Position numbers and translations under genes: made by a program. DNA of 64,000 nt from Protoeuglena noctilucae (lineage: Eukaryota). This document shows positions 4,766 through 53,100 of the stretch, piece by piece. Within the stretch, counting starts at the first letter, position 1, and each line of letters begins with the position of its first letter. The notes under the pieces were generated by a model. It was not told where the DNA came from. It worked only from the letters and a program-made list of their open reading frames with translations, and searched no databases. The stretch spans positions 186,001-250,000 of the forward strand of contig OY253680.1 in the NCBI GenBank assembly GCA_958009085.1, given 5' to 3'.

Positions 4766-5737
4766 GTGCGCGCCATGGGCTGCAGAGTCGGGTCCATGGG
4801 TCGGGTGCATAAGTTGCACCGTGCACCCTGCTTGCGCCACTGCACCCACCCCGCTTCCGCCACCAGTGCAGGGTTGCATGTCTTGCAACCCACTCAGCCC
4901 CGGCCCTCGCCACTGCGACCCCGGCCCTCGTTTCCTTAGAAACCCCCGGGCTGTCAGGCTGCGTATCCGCCGACCACGCAGCCCAACCACGCAGCCCATT
5001 GCCCACCACGACTGCCCTGCTTAGCCCAGCCACCTGCCCCACACCTCGTCAGCCTGTCAGCTCGAGCGCACTCATGCTTTGCGACCCTAACGCGCCCTTT
5101 CCGCGTCTCATATTTAGAAATCGAGACCTCAAACACAAGACCTCAAACACCACCTGTTAGCTCCAAACTTGATGGCTGGTTGGCAGGTTGGTTGGTTTCT
5201 GGGCCTTTCATGCCCATCACGCCTGCGCCTACGAGCTTTGGCAATGGCGATCACGGCGTGCGATCACGACCGGCCACGCTGATCCTGCTCCGTTCCGCGG
5301 CGTTTGAAAAGGCAACGGCAGCATCATGGCAAGGCCACCGCAAGGCCGGCAAGCGCAGCCAGAGGAGAGCGCTAGCTGGTACGAGGGCGCTGCAAGGGCG
5401 CAGCTGCAGCGCAAGAGCGGTGGTATTGACAGGGCCCGCTGCACCAAGGGCGGTCCAGTACAAACGCGCTGCTATTCAATGTTGCTGACACAAACCGTCT
5501 CTCGCCCTTTGATAGCGAGAGTGTCCCAGCTGCAGTGTGGTGTCCGCATGCTTGGTGTGCGGCCTCTGGCAACTGCTACAGTTACCCTGGGACGTTGACA
5601 GAAGCAAATTAGGGTGCAGAATGCGAAATGTGGCGCAGACTGGGGTCCGTCCATCAATTCTTTGTGAAGCACATTAATGCGTCTCCACCTCAACCTTACC
5701 CCACCACCCCGGCCATCACCGTCCACCCATCCTTTTA

Positions 5738-8440
5738 TCAATCCCCCGTGAACCGCATGTGTGTCTGGACCCCACCGCCACCCCCATCCGCATCGAAGCA
5801 GAATCTCAGGAAGGTCCCCGCCGTCGTAGCCACGTGCAATGCGGGTGCGTCGTCGTCACGCAACGACCCATCGAAGCAAACCTCAGAAGGACCCTCATCC
5901 GGGACCTGTGGAGAATTGGGGTGTGGGTGTGGGTGTGGGGTGATATGATATGACTTGCGAACAAAACCTGCAGCAAGTGATGTTAAGACTGTTTAGAGCC
6001 AAGCACACTGCATCAATCGTCACCTTGAAGTTGATGGACGACCATTGGCTCCGGAAGTAGTCCGGCAGCATGGGCCTGAGCAGCCCCACCACCGCGCTGC
6101 CCTGGCCAAACAGACGATTCGCCAGGCCGGACAGCGGCGTGCCGCCACCGCTGCTCTTGAAGCGAGGGTCGCCTGGGGGGAAGGAGGGGAAGGGGAGTGG
6201 TGAGTGACAGCGGAGGGGAGAGGTGGGAAAAGTGGTGGTTGAGAGTTGGAGTGAGTGGTGGACTTACCCACCCACTCCCCCCACACAGTCACCGTCACCC
6301 TCACCCGCTCCCGCACCCCTCCCTCACCCATCACCACTGACACCCGCTAGCTTACCCGCAAAGGCCGCCCCCGACGTCCCCGCCTCGCTCGCATGGCCGC
6401 TCTCCCGCAGCCCTGGGCCCTCCTGCCCGGAATTTGAAACATCCCCAGACCCCGCAGTGCGCCCCGCCGTGCTTGCTGCACCCGTTGCTTGCCCCGATTG
6501 CTTGCAGTGCGCCCTACTAAGCCCGCCACTTGCCCTGATGTGCCCGTGGCTGCATCCGCGTGTTGCAAGTTGAACACGTGCACTGTCTGTGTGCTCGAGG
6601 ACGCGGCCAGCCACCGGTTCTGCGGATGAGAGCGAGAGTTGAATCATGCACTGGTAACACTGGTAGCCACCCCCTCCACTTGTCCTCAGCTGTGTTGATC
6701 TGTCAAGTTACATTAGGACACCCGACCCCACCATCACCTGCACCACCACCACCACCTCTCACTCCCCTCACCTGTGGCGATATGGCAAGCGAATAAATGG
6801 AAGCTTGCTCCGCCCCCCGCCTCAGCTCATGGAGGCACTCCCCCGTGGCAGTGCGGAAGACCCGAATCAGCGTGCCCTTGACCGATGAGGTGGCGAGGAG
6901 GGAGCCGTCGAGGGACAGCTCGAGGGACCTGGGGGGGTGAGAGTGAGAGCCGTATGATTGGTGAGTGATAATGAGTGAGTGAGTAGTGATGAGTGTGCCT
7001 TTGACGGATGAGGTGGCGAGGAGGGAGCCGTCCAGGGAGAGCTCGAGGGACCTCAAGGGGTGACCGTTTAAGTGGTGAGTAATGAGTTGGGGGTGGGGAG
7101 TGGTAAGTGGTGGTGAGAGGTGAGTGGGGAGTGATGAGTGGGGAGCGGTGAGTGCAATGTCATGTTGTAGCTGTGCCCCCAGATGCAACTCGCCTGATGT
7201 CTGACTGGTGGGCCATCACGACAGCGCCTTTGCGATCACCACTCACCTGATGTCCGACTGGTGGGCGTCGATGAAGCGGGTGCGGCCCTGGGGGGCATAC
7301 CCCGCCTGACCGGGCGCAAGGTCCAAGGGAACGTGCTCCACCCTGACTTGCCCCCTCCGCAGCCCCAGGCACGCCAGGACGCACGCGTCGCGCAGCGAGC
7401 TCTGCGTGCAAGAGGGAGTTGGGAGAGCTGAACGGCGGGATCCAAATCGCACTGCATGGCTGGTTGTAAGCGAACGGGCAGTGAGACCCCCTCACCATGG
7501 CGACCAGTCCCATGGGGTTGTCGAGGGTCTCACTCTCCAACACCTGCGGGGAGTAATTGGTGATAACACAATCATGTCCTCGCGCACCCACACCAGTGTC
7601 CGCGGAAGCAGCGACTCTATCTGCGCTCCACTGCCACCGCAGCACCCGTAGCATTCGCAGCACGTCGACATACATCGCATCTTCCGACCTGCACAGCACG
7701 TTCAGGCGGCACTCACGAGGGACATGTCTTGCAGGCGATAGACGCACACGCGGTGCTGGCACGCAGCGGCCACGGCGTCGTTCCGCATGCGCACGGCCTT
7801 GACCGGAGCGCGCAAGGATACCTCGCAGGTCTGCAAGATAGCAGAAGGCGCGAATCGCCGCAAGTCGCCGCGGCGCGCGCTGCACAGGGTGCTGCCCCAT
7901 TCTGCGGAAAGCCACGCGCGTCAGCCGCGGCCTCGCGTCCCCGCATGCAGACTCCGAAATAGCAACTCACCTCCTGACGCCGCGCGTCGTCCCAAATCAC
8001 CACCTTGTTCGGTAGATAGCGCGGGGACGGGCCCCCGCCCAGGAGCGCCAAGAGCTGGCACTGGAAGAGCATTTCCGATTGCGCGAGCCCACCCCCGCAC
8101 TGCCGTCGGAACGCTTGCTGCATAAGAGAGGTGAATCGCAAGGCGTCACGGCGACATAGCCAGGGATGCCGCCGCGGCGGGGTGCATGGATGTCGGCGCC
8201 ACTGCGGAGCTCGCCTGGAAAGGAGCGCACTGAAACACCGCGAAACCATCCTCCGTCGCGACGCTCAGGAACGTCCCGTTCTGATTGAATCGCACCGACT
8301 GCGAATAGTGCGGGAGCTGAGCGGGCTCACGGGTGGCAGCAACACAGGTCGCCACCGATGAAGCAGGGGCTCATTCGAGATGCGAAGAACAACATCTCGT
8401 TGTTGAGTTCACTCACAAGCACGCGCGACGAGCGCGACAT
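5738..8440 (-). CDS. ATG18: PROPPIN autophagy protein, ATG18a/WIPI3-4-like, multi-exon
   Basis: [54 protein letters not shown] and [10 protein letters not shown] across GT/GC-AG introns. ATG at 8440, stop at 5738. Confidence 0.92.
6865..7053. repeat. 66-nt direct repeat (6865-6930 exonic, 6988-7053 intronic) in ATG18
   Basis: Hand alignment gives 59/66 identity; both copies encode [22 protein letters not shown]. Confidence 0.95.
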
Positions 8441-8816
8441 GTCGTCCGGCCTGGCACGCGATTTTCTGCGAGCTCTGGAGTTGGGCGCCCGACGCGCTCT
8501 CCTGATTAGCTGCCGTGGTGCATCCGACTCGAGGACTCGCCAACCGCTTGGTGGACACCCATCTCGCGCTTGCGACACCACGCGCTTGGCTCTTGCCTGA
8601 ACACAGGCCCTGCCGAAGCACGTAGGTCGCCACCCGTAAGAGTGAGTGTCAGCAACTCCTGTGACACGCAGCATCGCTCGAGACAGCCCGCGTGGGCAAG
8701 CCGGTGGGCTAAGCTTGCGCGCCGGTTGGCGGCCTGGCGGCGCGACAGGGCCCGCGCCTCTCACTGCTGCACAGCTCCCCGCCTCCTCGGTCGATATATA
8801 CGCATTCTCTCCCCGA

Positions 8817-18300: not shown

Positions 18301-20234
18301 CCCGGTCAACAACAAGTGCATCATCTTCGAAAGATGCGAGGTGAGGGGCTGGTCAACAATCTTCAACAATGCGGGGTGAGACCGATAGACCCCGTTGCCC
18401 ATGTGCGATGCGAGGTGTGAAGGGTGGGCATCATCGTTAAACACTGTGAGGCAAGACAATCTCGCCGCCTGCCTGCGTTCATATCAATCGCTGCTTTCCT
18501 CACCCGCAGCAAAGCATCAAGGAAATCTTCACGCAGCGTAGGGAGCTCAAGCGCGCCCTCAAGGACTCCAAGACCATGGTCGGGTCACTCAGGTGCGGGA
18601 CAGTAGCGACAGCAAACTTTTACAGTATATACCAGGTGCAGGATGGTCCCTTGTTAGCTACCTTAGCCAACACATGTGATGTCGTGCAATGTGTATCGCC
18701 ATGCTGGGCCCAACGGCCCTGCTCCTACCCCACCCCAACCAACCCCCCGCCCCTCTCCCCCTCCCCCAGGAGCGTGCTGGTGGTGGTGTTTGAGATCGCC
18801 ACCGTGATGATCATCCTTCTCATCTTCCGCGTGCAAGTGGGCACGCTGTGGGTGTCCCTCACCTCGCCCATCCTGGCCTTCACGTTCATCTTCGGCAACA
18901 CCCTCAAGACCATGTTTGAAACCCTGGTCATCATGTTCGGTCCTCATCCCTTTGATGTCGAGGACAAGCTGGTCGTGCCGGGGATCGGGTGGTGCAACGT
19001 GCTGGAAGTGACGCTGGTGAGAGATGAGGGGAGATGAGGGCGAAAGGGTGGTGCAACGTGCTGGAAGTGAACAGCAGACGTGTTTGGAAAGCCATCAATT
19101 AGCGCCCTCCAACCCCCTCACCACCCACACCCACCACCACCCCCCGCAGTGGCAGACGGTGCTGGTGGACTGGCAGGGCCAGCACTGGCACATCCCCAAC
19201 AGCAAGCTCCTGGCCGAGACGATCGTCAACGTCACGCGCTCCGACACCATGGGCGACGAGTTCGCCATATGGGTAGATTTGGAGACGGACTTCAACATCG
19301 TGGACGTGCTGTACGAGGAACTGGACAACTTCCGCAAGGCCAACCCCCAGCATTTCGGGGAGTGGGTCTCGTGAGTGCTTGTGTGCTTTGTGATTGTGTG
19401 TTGTATATTGTGTGTATTGTACATTATAGTTGTACTGAGTGGCATGGGGAGAGTGACTGGGGCGATGGGGCCGCGCAGCATCAGGTTGCTCAGCTAACCC
19501 CACCCTCTCGTTCACCGCACCCTCCACCCCCACTCACCCCACTCGCAGCGTCCGCGTGCAAAAGTGCGTCGAGTCCGGCCTCAAGATCCGCCTGGCCGTC
19601 TACTATGCGTGGGCATTCAACAACGTGGATCTGGGCAAGTGCGGTGACGCCAGGAACCTCATGTTCCGCAAGGTGCTGGAGATATTGCAGAGACACCGCA
19701 TCCGCCTCAGCAACCGGCAGGAGGTGAAGATCACCGACGTGCCCCCCACGCCCAGCACCACCAGCAACAGCATCCTGGACAGGTGAGGAGGGGTTTTTGG
19801 GGATACAAACACTCACCTTCACTGCTACCCCCAACTCTCACCCCCCAACCTCACTGCTACCCCGCCCCCACCCTCACCCTCACCCTCGCCCCCATCCCCA
19901 CCCTCACTGCTACCCTCACTTCCACCCTCACCCCAGGGCATTCGAAGCCGCCGAGCTCCGCCACCGCCACGCCCCCTTGCAACGGGGCCAGGAGGCCTGG
20001 GAACCCCGAGCCACGGTGCGCCCCAGCGGCTTGAGTGCCGAGGAACGTGCTACGGCCGAGGAGATCGCTTTGATCATGGCCAACGCAAGCGCCGCGCGCG
20101 CCGCGGCCAACGCCGAGGTCAACGGATCGAATCTCGCGGGGAATGGGGACCTGGCGCGGGCGTCGGTGCATGGTGCGGGGACGGGGACGGGGACGGACCG
20201 GGTGGACGTGGATCTGGGCCGGAAGAGCTTATGA
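15400..20234 (+). CDS. MscS-like mechanosensitive channel (MSL type, with EF-hand-like segment), about 12 exons
   Basis: LAFTFIFGNTLKTMFETLVIMFGPHPFDVEDKL and IPNSKLLAETIVNVTRS are MscS-domain motifs; several N-terminal TM segments. Start at 15400 is tentative. Confidence 0.9.
17113..17154. repeat. (CAA)n/(CA)n microsatellite in intron
   Basis: acacacaacaaacaacaacaacacacacacacacac read directly. Confidence 0.85.
19845..19935. repeat. Hexamer-like (ccctca/ccccca) intronic tandem repeat
   Basis: Read directly upstream of the last MSL acceptor. Confidence 0.7.
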
Positions 20235-27169: not shown

Positions 27170-30100
27170 TCACGGATCCACGGGACCACGAATCGCACCC
27201 CCCACCGCCACCTGCCCCCCGTCACCCATACCCATGCCTCGCCCCCGTGCCTGCGCAAAGCGCCCCATGCCCATCGCCACGGTCATTCCCACCACAACGC
27301 CGCTCAGCCCGACGATAAGCAAATCCTTAGTGTCCCAGCCCCATCCAGTACCCTGCAGCGACACCCCCATCGCATGACCGGCTGCTGCCTCATATGCTGA
27401 CAGCTCCCCGTCTCCTCCACCCCCACGAGCCCTTTCACCACTCCCATCACGACCGCCATTGCCACCTCCATTACCGCTTCCATTACCACCCCCATCACCA
27501 CCCCCCTCCCGATCCCCCACCCCTGTAGCACTGCCACCCTCTTCACCTCCTCCCCCAGGCGAGGTCCCCGCAGGCCCCACAGCCGCCTCCGTCCCCCCAT
27601 CTGCAACAGGTGTCTCCACCCCCACCGCCGCACCGCCGCCGCTGTCAGGCGTCACTGCCTCGCTCCCGCCAGTATCGGTACCACTATTGGTGCCCGTGGG
27701 CGTCCCCTCGGCACCAGTACTTGAACCAATCTCGGTGCCAGTCGCAGTGCCAGTCTCTACACCAGTCTCTACGTCAGTCTCCACGCCCGGAGTCCCACCC
27801 TGCTCAGGTGCCGCAGACCCACCCGCAGTTTCCATGTCCCACCACCAGCCGCCAAGAATGGACCCATTGCTGCCCCCGTCCGCCCCCGCCCACCCCTCCC
27901 ACTTGCGCCGCTCGTTGCCCTGACGCGCCAGTCGGAGTGCCAGAATGTTCCATAGGGTCTCCCAGGCGTCCTCGTTGCCCGTCTCTCCCAAGTAACTCCC
28001 CGACTGAAGGATGCCGCCCTTTTTTACAAAGTTGGTGTAGAGCAGCCGCTCCCACTGCGGGTGGTAGATAGAGCAGAACTAATGAACGCAGCAAATGATC
28101 GAAACGGAATCATATAACGTATTACCATGTCTGCCTTACGCCACTCACCAGTCACCACTCAACACCCGCATGGTCGCGTTAACACCATTCACCCCGTCAC
28201 CACTCACCACCCTTGTCTCTCTCAAGCACGCCACCATGTCCGCGTAACGCCCGTCCGCCACCATCGCCTCCAATGTCTCCTTCAGCCCAGGCATCCCCTC
28301 CCTCGTCACCGTGACGCTGCAGCGGTGCCAGTCGATGTCCGGGTGCTCGTTGAAGGGGTACGTGCGGCCCCACACCGTGCCGTCCACCTGAAGCCATTGA
28401 AATCACGGTCATTATGATTGACGATGAGTTATTATAGGGGTTGGAGATGCATGGGGACGTCGAGAGAGGGTCGACAGTGAAGGGTTGCAATTGACGAAAC
28501 AAGCAAGCGGGAGAGGATAGTAAGGCATCGGTGGTGATGGCAGGGGGAATAGGCACCTCCAATAAGCTGAGCAATGCACGCATCTCACCCAATACACGGG
28601 TATACAGCCGAACAGCACCGCGTTGAGGTATCGTGCCCCGTAGCCCAGAGTGAAACCGAAGGGCTGCAGGGGAGCGGAGGATGAGGGTGACATGGGTATC
28701 AGCAAGCGCAGAAACAGCAAGGTGGCATGAGCGGGCAATCACGCACAATCACCATGCAGTGTGTTCACACGTGCAGACCCTCGCAGTCACGCTGCAGTGT
28801 GGTAACGCAAGCGTGCAATCCTTCACAGTGACGCTGCAACTGCTCACCACATAGCAGAACTTGGCCTTGCTCATCTCCTCAGGCATGGGCAGGGAGTTGG
28901 GGTCTGCGGGGCGTGGGCAGGGAGTGGAGGGTCTGCGGGGCATGGGCAGGGAGTTGGGCAGTCCTGGGTCTGCCAAACACTGCTCACCCTGCCCTGCGCA
29001 CAGCACGGTCAACATACAACCCACCACACAGCGATCGATCGATACAACACCCGCCACATAACTCGATCCAACAGCCCCACAGCCCGCCATGCAGCCCAGC
29101 ACGCGGCACCCCGCACCGTTCGCCCCGCCCATGCGCACAGCGACCTTGAAGCCGGTCGTGTTGCGGTGGTAGTGGATAAGAGGGTAGCGTCCCGTGAGAT
29201 CGGACGCTTGCATGTCTGCGATCCGGTCCATGTTCATCCCGCCTGGCACCAGGCCCGCCCAGTACAGCAAGGTGGGGCGGTCGGCCCCTGCAGAGGTGAA
29301 GCGACAGAGACGTCACGCGGGGTGGTACCAGGTGGTGTGAAACGAGTTGGCGAGAGGTTGCTGTTGAGCTTGCTTACTGGCTATACCGGGGTGGAGTACG
29401 AGTCGGTAGAGTTTGTTGTTGATCTTGCTATTATGCATACATAGGATTTGTGGTACGAGTTGGTGGAGTCTGCTACAGAGCTTGCTATAGAGCTTTGTAT
29501 ATCAATATAGTCTCACAGTCAAGGCCAGCCTCACCATTTACATCGCCCTTGTTCGCGTTGTCGGGTGACCATGGGGACTTGGCTTGCAGGTCTTGGTAGG
29601 AGTAGCCGTGCATGGGGCCATTCAAGGACGCGTGCGATGGTGGGATGCCTATGTCCTTCCCCTCTTGGAAACAACTCCAACACACACCGCTCGAGGGGCC
29701 CCTGGGGGTGGACGACAGGGGCGATAGCTGGGTGAGGCCTTGTGGGCATCACACATGCACTGCGCTTTTCACACAAGCAACGTGCTCATCACATGCTCTG
29801 TGCTTAGTCCACATCCACCCTACCCGTCGCACACGCACCCCTGCCCATCACACCCACTAGATGCCTATCACCCCACTCCATCCTCAGTCACTCACATGGT
29901 ACCCAAATGGTGCTGCAAGTAGAAGAAGTGTCGCTTTTCGCTGGCTGGGTTGAAATCGTCTGGGAAGCCTCGGAAACCGACGTGCCACATGTTGGGATGA
30001 TAGTCCGTCAAACCGTGGTCCAACACGCCCATGCCGAAGTGGCGAGGGAGCGTGTTTCCCGACATGGACTGGCGATAGGGGGGCCAGTAGTCCCGCAGCC

Positions 30101-44865: not shown

Positions 44866-47759
44866 TTAGTCGTCGCTGTCGTCTGGTGGTGTCCGGAACT
44901 TGATGAGCGCAAACGCCACGACAACCGTGGCCTCTGCGGTCAAATCAAAGCCCAGGTGGTTGGCGCATGGGTCGCATGGTGCATGGGTCGCATGGCGCAT
45001 GAGTCGCATGGTGCGAACGACGCAGCACTAAGTCATCTTGTCGCCCTTCCTTCACACCCCACCCATCCACTCACCCAGCAGGATGACCAGGACAGGCACA
45101 GCATATCTCGTGTCTCCCCGCCATCCACTCACCCAGCAGGATGACCAGGACAGGCACGACGTATCTCCCCGCATCGTTCCCCATCTGTCGTACCACCGCG
45201 TACCCCACCCAACACTGCGCGACGCCCCCCAGCACCACCAGCCACCCCAGCGTGCGGTGGCCCAATTCAAACACACGTCGTCGACGGTGCAGGGGCTTGT
45301 CCTCTCCCAAAGCCCTCGCGCCCTCGTAGCCCTCTGGCACCTTGGGGCGTGAGAAACCCCACGTCATCTGCGGGGCACACAGGTACATATGTCAAGATCT
45401 GCTCGCCGCCAGTCTAGCGTGCAGACTGCGAGCTTTGCGATCGTGAGTGTGGGTGTAAGTGTGGGTGCGGGTGTGGGTGTTCATGGTCAAGCATTGGATG
45501 GGACTTGCTTGGATCACGGCTGCCGAGAGAAGGGTGAACCCCAGCACGGCGTGGGCACGGCTGAGGGTCCCTGGGTACTTGGGAGACATGACCGTCATGT
45601 AGATGCCTCCTGACACCGCCAGTACCATCGCCAGAGCCTGGACGACCCAGTGGGTGGCAAAGATGCGGTCGCAGCTGCGGGGGTCGCAAGGGCGGCATCG
45701 GATGGTGCTTTGTGCTGGTCGATGCTGTCTCGGTTTGTGCTTTGGAGATGGGCAAGCAATTAGGCAAGCTTGTGCTCTGTGCGGTTCGGTTCGTGCTTCG
45801 TGCTTTGTCGGCAAGCGGTCACTCACGCAAGTCCCTGTGGCAGCCCTCGTCGCGCCAGCATCGCCAGGGAGGCTGAGGGCAGCAGGAAGGCAAAGGGCAG
45901 GGCCAGGAGGCACGCGTGGATGAGGATGATTCTGGCGTTGCGGGTCAGGGGCAAGGACGCGCCACGGCCTGCATGGGCGAAACGAGGCGAAGCGAGGGTG
46001 TGGGAGTTCGGGCCAGCGAACGTGATCGTGGAATGCGATTGCGGAAGCACATGAAGCACCATCAATAAAGAGTTTTAAACATCTCATGCCGCGCCACTCA
46101 CCGATCAGGTCAGGCCCCTCAAACACAAGAGACAGTCGCCCCTTCGCAGCGTGCATCGCGAGCGCCGTCTGTGCCAGCGAACGCCGCTTGGCCGCCTGCC
46201 CCGGCCCCAACGCCCACAGCACGTCGTTGGCCCTCGAAAGGTCCAGCCCGGGCGACTCCTTGGTCGCAATCGTGAACGTGACGGTCATCGTATTGCCCAC
46301 CACCGTCACCGCCCCACCATGCACGGCGACGGCGTCCGTGGGCGTCACCCCATCCACGGTGTACGACGTCATGTGATAGCTCGACACACCGCCCGTCCCT
46401 GGGAAGCCCACCACTGCGTATCCCGGCACCATGTCTCCGGTACTCGACCACCCGAACGCCAGGTATGAGGCTGCAGGGCCCTGCGGAGTCGATCGGACCC
46501 ACCCCATTGTGCCACGAAGCACGGGCCACGCCACCATGCAAGGTGTTGCAATGCAGGGGCCACGTGCCATCTCCTGCCAGGGCAATGCATAATCCGCAAT
46601 CTTGCCTGTAAAGCGAGGGTGATGGCGCCGTTGGGGTCGCGGCGCGCGGCCTGGGCGTCGGACCAGTGCAGCACGACGTCGCTCGCCAGAGGCGCCATAC
46701 AAGCGAAACCACCCAGCGTGGACGGGGTGCTGTATCCGCAGGCGGCAGACAGACCGCCGCTGCTGGAGGGCGGCACGAGCCACGACGGCTGCGTGAAGGC
46801 AGGGACCGGAGTGGGGCTGGCCGACGAGGCGGGCGTGGGCGCTGGGGTGGCCGCTGCCGCTGCCGTGAAGGCAACGCTTCCGGCGTACTGCGCGAAGCGG
46901 TGCTGCCCGGACGCGAGGCCCATCGGGGCCGAGGTGCCCGATCGACCAATTGCCACCCACAGGTTGTTGCCCTGGGTGGCCGAGAGGCTTTTGGCCGGGG
47001 CCTGCGAGGGCGTCGACAGGATTCGATCTGAAACCCCGTCAGTGGTGTTGAAATACGCATATATTGGTAGTGATGGAATGGCTAGCGGGTCTTGATCGAC
47101 GCACGGGCGGCCCTTGGTTGGTGAAAAGGTGAGGTAAGAAGGGGGCAAGCGCTCACGTTGGGTATGCTCAGCGTGAGCGTGGCGCTCCATATCATGACGC
47201 CGTCCTGGGTGCGCGTCTGCGCGTCCGTGATGGTGACGTCCGAGGTGGACACCGGGGTCACGTGGCCCTGCCCGCGGTACGTCCCGACGAAGCCTGGGGC
47301 GCAGCACCGCAAGGAACCGTGGGCACGACTTGCCGTGCCTCGAGAATTGCGCCGGGCGCGCGGGCGGGCCTCACCGGTGCTCCCGTCGTTGTAGCCCAAA
47401 ATAATGTACGAGCCGTCCATGCCGCTCGTGCCCCCGAAAGCCACGGCGGAGTAGCTGCTGGGCTCCGACTCCATCCCCAGCTGCACGGTAGGCTCGACGC
47501 CCGCCGTGGGGATCCAGTGAATGGCCAAGTATGGAGAGGACATGACTTGGAGCTTGCATCCGCCTGCGATGGCGGTCTTCGGTTGTCGGGACGAGGCATC
47601 GGCGCGCAATGATGGGTATTGGGGGGCTTGAGCGCCCAACTTGCCTGGAAATACCGCATCGCTTGGTACGCAAACGGCCAACACTGAGCTCAGCAAGCAG
47701 CCGGCGAGGGCTGCTGCGAAGAGCATCGCAGGCCCCGGCGGGGCCCACGCCCTATCCAT
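44866..47759 (-). CDS. Two DOMON domains plus cytochrome b561 (CYBDOM-type)
   Basis: Signal peptide; DOMON1 (IHW, AVAFGG.SGMDGS, GQH) and DOMON2 (LHW, YLAFGWS..GDMVPG, AMH); b561 with four His (ILIHAC, ATHWVVQ, RAHAVLG, LGHRTLG). Confidence 0.9.
44963..45013. repeat. gcatgg-based intronic tandem repeat (16-nt period)
   Basis: gcgcatgggtcgcatggtgcatgggtcgcatggcgcatgagtcgcatggtgc read directly. Confidence 0.85.
45063..45157. repeat. 37-nt perfect direct repeat of exon end plus donor (45063-45099, 45121-45157)
   Basis: ccatccactcacccagcaggatgaccaggacaggcac occurs twice. Confidence 0.95.
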
Positions 47760-50182: not shown

Positions 50183-53100
50183 TTAGGGTTCTTTGCCGTG
50201 GTTCCCTTTGGGCCCCATAGGTGCGTGAGGGGGGCCATCCATACTGTGCACGGCCAGACGCCCCACTGACCCCCCCGCAACCGGCCCAGCCTCATTCCCC
50301 GCCGCCCCCTCCGTCATCCGGTGCGGGGCAACCCCGCGGTCTGTCGTCCGCTCCGTGGTGCGCCCCCGCGACCCCACCTCCGTCACACGCACGGTCGTGC
50401 GCTCCGTCATGCGCCCGGCCCTGGGACCCAGGGCAAAGGCCCGCTGCGACCCGGGCTTCGTGCGGAGCGACCCGGACGCCAGGATGCCCCCGCTCTCCTG
50501 CGTCCGCATCGGCCGGACGATGTCCGGGGCCTCGATGTCCGTCGGCGCCAGGACCACACCCGCACTCGACTGCGGCACGGGGCCGACCTCCCGGGACCCG
50601 CCGCTCCGCTGGGGCGCGGACCGGGCCATGAGGAGCTTGCCGACCGTCTGGCTGGAGTTGGCGCCTTGTAAGGGCATCACGAACATGTCCTCGTTCTGGT
50701 TGGCCTTGTTATACACTGACTGGCGAACGCAGATGGCCTGGATGTCGGACCCTAGTGCCCCGTGCAGCGCGCCGCTCATCCCGAGCGCCCCTGCGGACGG
50801 ACGGCGGAGCGGCGGCTTGAGACGCAACGCGGGCGCGGCGCTGGAGCTGGAAACAATAACGAGTTCTGGCTGCTGTGGCTGGCCACGCCATCGCAACCCT
50901 GACAACCTCTTCGCATTGCACACTGTCGCGGAAAGTCACCTGTCGACACGGCTGGTAGCAGCGAGAGGGCCGTCTGCACGGGTCCCAGGAAGCGCAGCAG
51001 TGGCCGCCTTGCGCCCGCCACCGTGACGAGCGCGTCGCCCGCCGCAGCCGCCAGCTTGCACCGGAAGATGCCCGCCTGACACAGGGCCGACACGTGCGAA
51101 CTGGCGCGCGCCAGCTCCTGGAGGGAGAAGTGGAGTGCCTCGGCCAGGACCTGGGGAGGTGAAGCGATGTTTCGAATCAGATGGCGAAAGTGAGACTATA
51201 AACGCCCATGCTTGTGACGGAGGGCCAGCCACCAACGCGCCCGTGTGAGTGATGCGCCTTGCATCACACCACCCGTGCATCTCTCCACGCCATCCGCACG
51301 CAGAGCGCCAAAGAGAGGACCGTCGCCGGCCCCTTCACTCACCAGGCCCCGCTCCTCAGGCCGATCCATCGTCTCGTCGATGTTGAGGACCCCCAGCACC
51401 AATGCGGGCGTGCCCGTCTCGAGCCTCAGCGCGCCCGCCGCATCCATGATCCGGTCCACCACGCCGTCGATCTCGCGAATGGCCTCCAGGCAGTCGATGG
51501 CCTTGTGCCGGACCAGCAGGGCCGTGACCTGGGGTAGCAGGGGTGGGTGTGGGGGGGGGTGTGGGTGGGAGAGGTGTGGAAGGGGCGTGTGCGAGGGAGA
51601 GGTGGGTGGGAGAGGAGTGTTGTGGGGCACGCCAGACAGCAAACGGCCGTTGCACAGATGGAGTTGGCGTGCAGTGCAATCCGCCTGCCTTTCCCATCCC
51701 AACACCGCCACTCGCCTGGGGCATGTGGAGAGCAACAGCCAGTCACATGCTTATAACCATCATACGCCAATTGCAAAACTGCCACTCGCCTGGGGCATGT
51801 CGAGGGCGATGGTCGTGAGGCCGTGGACGGCGCGGGCGTACTGGGGCCGGGACGCGTCTGTCGGCATGCCAGAGTCCCCAGACATGCCGCCCTCGTCGGT
51901 CTGCGCCAGAGCCCCGAACGTCGCCGGAGTGCCTTTGTCCTCACGACCCCGCGCCTCCCGGCCCCGCGCGTCCCTGCCCCGTGCCACCCGCTTCCTCTCC
52001 CGGTCCTCCACCTGCTGCAGCGTCACGCCTGGGAGACGAGGAAAGCAAAAGAGCGGTTTCGCAAGGCGGATGGGACTCAGTCGGGGGAGACAAGCTGACT
52101 GCCCATCTGCCGACACACCGCACATCTGAACCCAGTCAGCCAGGCCCCGCCTGGCTGTGCATGGGCCACACACGCATGCGCATGCCATGCAGTGCTTGTG
52201 CCCTCACCTTGCAGGACCTGCTTGGCCGCGTCCAACGGCAGGATCTGCCCCAGCAGCATGTCGCGGGAGTAGCGCGTGATGCCGCTGACGTGCCTCATGG
52301 CCGCAAACTCCACGGCCGCGCACACGGACCCGACCACCAGGAAGAACTGCCGCGAGAACACGGCTCTGTCGATGTCCGGAACAAGGCCGATCGGGGCGCC
52401 CAGCAGCAGGTAGCACCCGAACCCAAACGTGAGGAGGTTGAAGAGCCATGAGAATAGGACCATGGTGGCGCCACGGTACATGCTGTCCTGGTCCTCCGAG
52501 AAACTCTTGGCGCGACGCATGACGACCGAGATGGGCCCGCCGTGGAGGAGGTGGGAGAAGACAAAATAGGAGACGGGGGCCACCAGGCCGAGGAGGACGG
52601 CGCCGGCGCGGTCGGCGGGGGTGGGCATGGAGAAGGACTGCGGGGGTGGGGAGGGGTGTGCGGGGGTGGGGACGTGTGTGCGGGGGTTGGGGAGGGTGTA
52701 TGCGGGGATGGGGAGGTGTGGGGAATGCATGGGCTGGTGCGGGGGCGAGCCACTGCACTCAGCTTCGTTTCCTGGCGCCGGCATTTCTGCCAGTAGTATG
52801 CATGTCAGACGCACCGGTGGCACGACGTCTCGGTAGTGCGTGACCCGCACGAGGAAGAGCTCGCCCACGATGAAATAGACGACGCCCGGGAACACGGCAG
52901 CGGCGGCCTCGAACCATGCGGGAATGTTGACGCCCGCGTTGGCGTAGAGGGCGGCGACGGCGGCGAACACCCCAGAGAAGAAGGCGCGGTAGGTGAGGAA
53001 TTGGGAAGAGGAGAGGTTGCCGCCGTGGACGCTCATGCCGCCCACGAGGTAGCCGACGTGGTGGAGGGAGAGGACGGCCTGGGACGCGAGCTGCGGGGGC

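Follow-up and report, generated by a model that had tools for sequence, protein, structure and literature searches.

Nested copies of both exon borders inside an intron of a Protoeuglena noctilucae PROPPIN gene: most likely a silent remnant of formerly coding sequence

Short tracts of a diverged homologue may be copied into a related locus by interlocus gene conversion, or by templated insertion in the course of break repair. Tandem exon duplication yields alternative 3' splice sites and mutually exclusive exons, whose divergence, under protein-level selection, is mostly synonymous. Introns holding copies of their own borders are also known, as a by-product of local duplication. For human F7, the available text of the report (PMC1557585) describes a minisatellite in intron 7, with 37-bp units of which the first straddles the border of exon 7 and intron 7, and indicates that the pseudo-donors are silent, the most upstream donor being the one that wins. 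Tandem and segmental duplications are also described, in the available portions of three reports (PMC2891723, PMC3265369, PMC4974935), as a source of new or shifted introns. Here we describe an intron of a PROPPIN (ATG18/WIPI-like) autophagy gene, located on the minus strand of a stretch of 64,000 nucleotides from the GC-rich marine eukaryote Protoeuglena noctilucae (contig OY253680.1, positions 186,001 to 250,000, assembly GCA_958009085.1); this whole 64-kb stretch is called "the window", and all positions refer to it. The intron features copies of both of its borders, nested inside the originals, whose exon-derived parts differ from the originals only by synonymous changes. This combination is unusual. 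In the literature searched, not exhaustively, no report was found in which both borders are copied in nested fashion and have diverged only at synonymous sites.

The intron covers positions 6929-7246 (minus strand, 318 nt). Exon 6 ends as ...GCC CAC CAG TCG GAC ATC AG|GTGAGT, with the border at 7247/7246, and exon 7 begins at 6928, after the CAG at 6931-6929. The copies are found in the nested order A, A', B', B, as listed below from exon 6 to exon 7.

7247..7401, minus strand: exon 6, from the gene model and the RNA contig joints 7401/7496 and 6928/7247; its last 20 nt (7247-7266) are copy A
7241..7246, minus strand: outer donor GTGAGT, in use, as an RNA contig joint from run X9 omits 6929-7246
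7214..7240, minus strand: filler of 27 nt, from the outer donor to A', without detectable homologue
7188..7213, minus strand: A', which repeats the exon 6 end inside the intron, followed by GCGAGT; the exon part (20 nt, 7194-7213) has one synonymous difference, TCG/TCA
7064..7187, minus strand: core of the inner intron-like segment, CA-rich, with CACTCAC-type repeats of ~14 nt, AG-free from 7171 to 7054
7052..7063, minus strand: copied acceptor flank TCACCCCTTGAG, with the inner AG at 7053-7052 and a G at -3
6988..7051, minus strand: B', which repeats the first 64 nt of exon 7 inside the intron and encodes 21 residues, with seven synonymous third-position differences, preceded by GAG
6929..6987, minus strand: spacer of 59 nt, G-poor and intron-like, ending in the outer acceptor CAG, which is used in the X9 contig
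6772..6928, minus strand: exon 7, from the gene model and RNA; it starts with copy B (64 nt, 6865-6928) and encodes SSVKGTLIR and LRRG

A' and the corresponding sequence at 7266-7241 share 24 of 26 nt, at an offset of 53, while B', taken with its AG (7053-6988), shares 59 of 66 nt with 6930-6865, at an offset of 123. The likeness between B and B' runs into the intron flank (TCACCCC...AG), for a total of 75 nt at 88%; the inner acceptor flank, TCACCCCTTGAG, differs from the outer one, TCACCCCCCCAG, in 3 of 12 nt. An earlier note, made from the sequence letters, had described this intron as containing copies of both exon ends, and its coordinates and sequences are borne out. Whole repeat units are alike on neither side, and in this the locus departs from a head-to-tail boundary repeat: on the donor side 26 of 53 nt are alike, with the remainder at random level, and on the acceptor side 75 of 123. 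The 27-nt filler has no similarity to the exon 6 tail (score at or under that of shuffles) or to the start of the inner intron, and no template in the window; for the 33 nt that follow the outer donor, likeness to the 5' end of the inner intron does not exceed that of shuffles beyond GAGT. Introners and other transposon-derived introns occur in many similar copies, with terminal repeats and short target duplications; the comparison made here covers the 64-kb window, where no other copy of the inner segment is found, except for low-complexity words of up to 21 nt. Alignment of the spacer with the last ~45 nt of the inner segment scores 30, compared to 18.7 +/- 3.9 for the null, where one of 29 segments scores as high; the two are possibly homologous.

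The nested structure is real DNA, and not an assembly artefact. A single contig of 7514 nt from the isolate run X2 (depth 175) spans 5700-8500 with 0 differences and 0 gaps, and thereby answers the question, raised in the earlier note, whether both copies lie on one molecule. Run X2 comes from another study than the marine metagenomes which also hold the stretch, and may itself be the source of the window DNA. It could be argued that an assembler stitched together two haplotypes or strains, as marine metagenome samples seem to be the source of the window, or to match it, and synonymous-only differences look like allelic or strain variation. A stitch, however, would give the copies in tandem order rather than as A, A', B', B. 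No variant letters are found over the region in four runs, and the open reading frame (ORF) that reads through A' (P0044/P0194) is represented in the protein collection by 15+2 contigs. B and B' are nowhere identical over more than 26 nt, which is less than the word size of the assembled contigs, taken to be 31, so that a graph chimera between the copies is not expected. Stitching is, on the whole, hardly credible.

The differences between the copies follow the codon structure. All the seven mismatches found between B and B', over 64 exon-derived nt, fall in codon position 3 and are synonymous, and the same holds for the single exon mismatch between A and A' (TCG/TCA). The exact chance of a placement restricted to third positions is 2.7e-4 for B alone (7/7) and 7.1e-5 for both copies (8/8); the seven silent changes of the B copies are the same codon pairs pointed out in the earlier note. 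At codon positions 1 and 2, 0 of 56 nt are changed, against 12 of 46 at position 3 and in the copied intron flanks (Fisher 2.9e-5). The inference made in that note, of selection acting on the inner copy at the protein level, is therefore sound. Neutrality over the whole divergence would have led to an expected 9.0 changes at positions 1 and 2 (P(0) = 1.3e-4), and the inner copy can therefore have been neutral for at most about one third of the divergence time. By these comparisons, the inner copy was coding during most of its divergence. The base composition fits this picture: four of the eight differences are G/C transversions, and the G+C content at third codon positions (GC3) is 0.86 in B' and 0.53 in the spacer (57 nt, 5% G), with 0.81 for the coding sequence, as may be expected for divergence under codon bias, not for intron decay.

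Plain neutral duplicates, whose mismatches happen by chance to be synonymous, are a very improbable explanation. It is true that other boundary duplicates in the window differ mixedly (at 45058-45167, as at 51693-51807, a synonymous codon change is found together with a non-synonymous one), and that two of the eight differences (ACG/ACA and TCG/TCA) are CpG transitions, of the kind favoured by neutral decay. Random placement, however, has P = 7e-5, and even when the exon copy is allowed to change only at third positions P is 0.004. Ongoing gene conversion between B and B' was also considered as the cause of the synonymous-only pattern, and was rejected by reasoning alone: conversion erases all types of difference alike, and is incompatible with a synonymous divergence of ~30%.

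Use of the inner splice sites was evaluated on RNA contigs from three runs (X9, X10, X11); these are assembled sequences, not reads, and assembled contigs drop rare variants. One contig of 1023 nt from the metatranscriptome X9, containing exon 1 and exons 3-8 with their joints, links 7247 to 6928, with GT..AG ends. It is the only RNA contig across the intron, and has 0 differences from the exon versions of the sequence (TCG, B codons); exons 8, 9 and 10 are found joined in another X9 contig. No joint at any inner splice site is present in the RNA contigs of the three runs, where rare forms could be missed; X10 and X11 have no spliced coverage of 6929-7246, and absence there is not counted as evidence. 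Three pieces from X11 (6840-7084, 7266-7423, 5958-6117) were considered as evidence for the inner sites and rejected, being colinear with the genome across exon-intron borders; they are read as unspliced RNA or DNA carry-over. The intron is thus removed whole, from 7246 to 6929, and the inner copies are non-coding today.

The sequence of the inner sites is also informative. The inner acceptor, TTGAG|G, features GAG, where the other acceptors of the gene feature CAG in 9 out of 9 cases (eight introns with an RNA joint, one inferred), and by this comparison it does not rank as a competent acceptor; its AG is the first one following an AG-free zone of 119 nt. The inner donor, CAG|GCGAGT, is similar to the GC donor at 8214, which is functional, but its use would add 53 nt, after which the frame meets a stop at once (AGG TGA): A', therefore, cannot be coding. 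B' has no donor of its own, as no GT is present within the 59-nt spacer. If the outer donor were joined to the inner acceptor, the protein would gain 41 residues in frame, composed of B' and of a 19-codon spacer with a completing Arg. The earlier note had pointed out that the 123-nt offset is in frame and stop-free. This is true, but carries little weight: when similar G-poor 3' segments of introns in the window are read over 19 codons, 69 of 87 frames have no stop, and the joint chance of no stop and of an offset multiple of 3 is ~0.26. A present isoform with 41 additional residues, suggested as possible in the note, is not supported, as the sole spanning RNA contig runs from outer donor to outer acceptor, the acceptor is GAG and the spacer is intron-like in composition (GC3 0.53). 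Likewise, of the junctions proposed there for inspection, from the outer and inner donors to the inner and outer acceptors, the X9 contig shows only 7247|6928; a rare isoform could be missed in contigs. Most likely, then, the inner copies do not represent a new isoform, but a silent relic of sequence that once was coding.

As for the origin of the relic, our preferred interpretation, to which we assign a probability of about 0.4, is that a homologue of the same PROPPIN gene, diverged but functional, was the template from which the inner segment was copied as a non-coding patch. This homologue could be a paralogue, or else the version of the gene present in a diverged lineage or haplotype. The patch would include at least B' and the acceptor flank, and perhaps all of 7213-6988, that is the end of exon 6, a complete 142-nt GC...(G)AG intron and the start of exon 7. 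Insertion into the resident intron may have taken place by recombinational break repair, for example as a templated insertion or as an aborted gene conversion primed out of register. Differences that are only synonymous, or located in the intron flanks, would then be found because the two copies diverged while both coding, and the patch would have been harmless after insertion because the outer sites were used. The inner sites now seem weakened, with GC for GT at the donor and GAG for CAG at the acceptor. A' might alternatively be a separate local duplication, like three other donor-side ones in the window.

A few features agree with such a patch. The inner segment is a well-formed 142-nt intron in the style of this genome, and a GC-AG intron is used in the same gene (8215|8117). 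Without the patch, the resident intron would measure 33+59 = 92 nt, to be compared with 94-183 nt for neighbouring introns. The fact that B' looks freshly coding, while the adjoining spacer does not, was counted in favour of a patch from elsewhere. Also relevant is P0001, an ORF from an ENA metagenome contig of 1462 nt, which is identical to the read-through ORF from 'LSPPLTT' (~7119) onward; the identity covers B', the spacer, exon 7 and beyond, while the first 22 residues (~7119-7187) are strongly diverged, and colinear. Diverged versions of part of the intron therefore exist, by recombination or by chimeric assembly, and P0001 may represent a variant, structural or recombinant, of the inner half of the intron, unless its contig is chimeric. 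The fallback explanation of the earlier note, a captured fragment of an allele or of a paralogue, comes close to this origin, but no donor copy was found.

The search for the donor and some features of the locus weigh against a patch. In X2, depth is exactly 175 over 6922-7109, 7204-7297 and exon 7, and no second sequence at least 90% alike therefore aligns there; a donor would have to be lost, foreign or more than 10% diverged. No PROPPIN paralogue is found in the window. Scanning metagenome contigs with exon 7 (52 aa) produced 19 loci, none of them close, the best at 67% identity. In the seven which were inspected the coding sequence is continuous, without an intron at the site; being from distant, mostly intron-poor taxa, these loci are uninformative on the nested copy. 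Protein collections yield, as close sequences, only P0001 and the ORFs of the window itself: the 170-aa read-through ORF has 39 matches and exon 7, searched at longer lengths, has 6 (exon-7-related ORFs under 92 aa being outside this search), in both cases with P0001 as the only close one, while the 268-aa ORF holding A' has one match, the window's own. When exon 7 was compared with 1.84 billion representatives, the best 150 of 6766 matches were mostly multi-repeat WD40 proteins, with, again, only P0001 close. A single patch further predicts that the 33 nt after the outer donor be like the start of the inner intron, which they are not beyond GAGT. The 27 residues identical at such a synonymous divergence are somewhat more than typical for a paralogue. 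Finally, the possible homology of the spacer to the 3' end of the inner segment (1/29 in the null) equally fits an in-situ tandem duplication of ~123 nt, and the presence of boundary duplications at three other loci of the window raises the prior for an in-situ origin.

These loci were found by a blastn self-scan of the window, which gave 11 local direct repeats at a spacing of 600 nt or less. Five of the 11 span a splice border, namely A/A', B'/B and three further duplications of an exon end plus donor, so that five boundary copies are present at four loci within 64 kb. The three further cases are as follows.

45058-45167, minus strand: duplicate of an exon end (…VPVLVILLG) plus GTGAGT donor, period 58, 52 nt at 90%
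51693-51807, minus strand: duplicate of an exon end (…TTIALDMPQ) plus GC donor (CAG|GCGAGT), period 74, 41 nt at 83%
18980-19070, plus strand: repeat of an exon end (…GIGWCNVLE) plus GTGA donor, in a gene for an MscS-like channel (from the translation), period 59

At 45058-45167 one codon difference is synonymous (TAC/TAT) and one non-synonymous (GTC/GCT); neither donor is damaged, and splicing from the second would cause a frameshift. In the exon part of 51693-51807, GCC/GCT is synonymous and GAC/CAC non-synonymous. At 18980-19070, 25 nt are identical, the exon part shows no difference and the filler between the copies is unrelated. The other duplicates being either mixed or unchanged, only the ATG18 intron stands out by a purely synonymous pattern, while duplication of splice boundaries as such recurs in this genome. 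A' differs from A at only two positions, one of them a CpG transition, and may simply be another local donor-side duplication. A different kind of repeat is present at 28882-28958 (minus strand), just upstream of an exon: it is an intronic tandem array of ~28-29 nt units, each ending in CCCCGCAG, which gives several acceptor-like sites in a row.

The main rival to a patch is an in-situ origin, with a former or minor isoform of 41 additional residues: a tandem duplication of ~123 nt on the acceptor side, and a separate one of 53 nt on the donor side, would have been followed by long use of the upstream acceptor. This use would have kept B' constrained, and the acceptor would since have weakened to GAG, or would still be used in a minor or conditional way. 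The codon-periodic divergence does require a coding history, the offset of 123 is a multiple of 3 with no stop, and a tandem unit predicts the possible homology between the spacer and the 3' end of the inner segment. The abundance of boundary duplications in the window, and an inner AG which, like a genuine 3' splice site, is the first after 119 AG-free nt, also speak for it, and an isoform of low abundance could be missing from contigs, which lose rare variants. On the other hand, none of the three RNA runs contains a joint to 7051, the spanning contig being outer-to-outer; the acceptor is GAG against CAG in nine introns out of nine; the spacer is composed like an intron (GC3 0.53), its open frame having a chance of ~0.26, and A' cannot be coding, given the AGG TGA met when the inner donor is used. 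From the PROPPIN fold, one would not expect both copies to be strictly constrained (0/56) either, as a single strand pair, out of the two resulting from the duplication, is enough for a propeller blade. We consider an in-situ origin unlikely, though it is the alternative to be taken most seriously.

A mirror case can also be imagined, in which the exon ends were recently duplicated in situ, and the exon was later overwritten from a diverged functional homologue, by gene conversion or introgression, leaving B' as a fossil of the former exon. The same codon-periodic pattern would result; the first step agrees with the local habit of duplication, and the abrupt switch of P0001 from divergence to identity, within the intron, is what recombination of diverged lineages gives. 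An unseen donor is, however, needed here too, with X2 depth over exon 7 at exactly 175, and if the spacer and the inner 3' end are homologous (~73%), the duplication is old and B' should have decayed, which it has not. We regard this mirror case as distinctly improbable.

A more far-reaching possibility, to which we give little credit, is that of an alga with active rewriting of its splice borders, where the inner acceptor copy is kept codon-perfect as a conditional 3' splice site. Breaks near intron ends would be repaired by copying the exon end with its splice signal, sometimes from a homologue or from its pre-mRNA; both borders of the ATG18 intron would have been rewritten in this way, and the PROPPIN protein would gain a duplicated blade-5 strand pair, near lipid site 1. 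Among these possibilities, the patch from a diverged homologue is the one we favour.

The gene hosting the intron was modelled from the sequence as 11 exons. Those other than exons 6 and 7 are reported below.

8440-8417, 8298-8215 and 8117-7971, minus strand: PROPPIN exons 1-3, gene model
7830-7717 and 7543-7496, minus strand: PROPPIN exons 4-5, gene model
6619-6530 and 6422-6356, minus strand: PROPPIN exons 8-9, gene model
6172-~6022 and ~5903-5741, minus strand: PROPPIN exons 10-11, gene model

The spliced model encodes 400 aa, and its alignment to relatives spans residues 4-397. For P0011, named Autophagy-related protein 18a, residues 76-388 are aligned, at 37% identity (E 1e-56). Exon 7 alone matches the Pfam PROPPIN family PF21032 with an E of 9.5e-6 and 25.4 bits, under the 30-bit cut-off for a query which is a 52-aa fragment. 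The relatives, aligned over nearly the whole length, and the Pfam match together assign the gene, by sequence similarity, to the PROPPIN family. In Pichia angusta Atg18, according to the available text of PMC5656675, site 1 includes H221, S241, R248 and F261 (of FRRG). The window protein has a His, followed by Ser at +20, Arg at +27 and LRRG, in place of FRRG, at +40; these would correspond to H221, S241, R248 and F261, as judged by spacing, not by structure, in keeping with the statement of the earlier note that AH...S.KGT..R carries site-1 residues. B' ends one residue short of the site-1 Arg.

Other introns of the gene deserve mention. The one at 8118-8214 (minus strand) is a GC-AG intron (CAG|GCGAGC...TGCAG), with a joint at 8215|8117 in an X9 RNA contig, with GC..AG ends; besides 8214, GC donors are found in the window at 51790 and in the inner copy, at 7193. 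An additional intron of 107 nt at 6423-6529 (minus strand; CAA|GTGGCG...GGGCAG|GAG) is required to bring the conserved C-terminal exons into frame. It is retained in an X9 RNA contig, which reads through 6419-6619; two X9 contigs abut at 6418/6419. G-poor 3' halves, rich in CACTCAC-type words, are found at 6975-7155 and in other introns (e.g. 6180-6262 and 51530-51640), and at 7083-7155 they recur with a period of ~14 nt. Read on the opposite strand, such words give the donor consensus GTGAGTG, and they agree, too, with a CTCAC resembling a branch point; they yield inverted-repeat pairs, such as 6752-6767/7126-7141.

The nested copy may be seen as the record either of an exchange with coding sequence, or of a past life as coding sequence. 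If the donor were found, the locus would show cleanly, in a natural case, how repair templated by a homologue can add sequence to an intron; this is one route to intron growth and to the turnover of splice sites. If, instead, the copy was constrained in place, a hidden PROPPIN isoform would be involved, altering the blade that forms phosphoinositide site 1. The finding of five boundary copies at four loci in 64 kb suggests a genome-wide habit.

Compared to the systems described so far, and within what the available text of the cited reports covers, the F7 minisatellite is the closest documented analogue for the donor side of the ATG18 intron: in both cases an exon end with its donor is repeated in the intron, the border lies within the first unit, and splicing selects the donor located furthest upstream, here the outer one used in the X9 contig. 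F7 units, however, are identical and arranged head-to-tail, while in ATG18 only 26 of 53 nt are alike, with one extra copy; moreover, the acceptor side is duplicated too, and its copy differs in a codon-periodic way. Introns derived from duplication, as far as they are described in the portions of the reports cited above, similarly result from a local duplication with splice signals, which is absorbed by splicing and lengthens or creates an intron. There, exon sequence turned into a new intron between AG|GT copies; in ATG18, an existing intron holds nested borders, and the flanks are unlike. Duplicated alternative exons differ in that B' has no donor of its own, a GAG acceptor and no RNA junction. 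Ordinary gene conversion replaces sequence, whereas in ATG18 a tract, for which no donor was found, is added, nested and in register with the borders. Conversion and templated insertion are nonetheless the mechanisms closest to the proposed patch, the differences within the tract reflecting the coding history of the donor.

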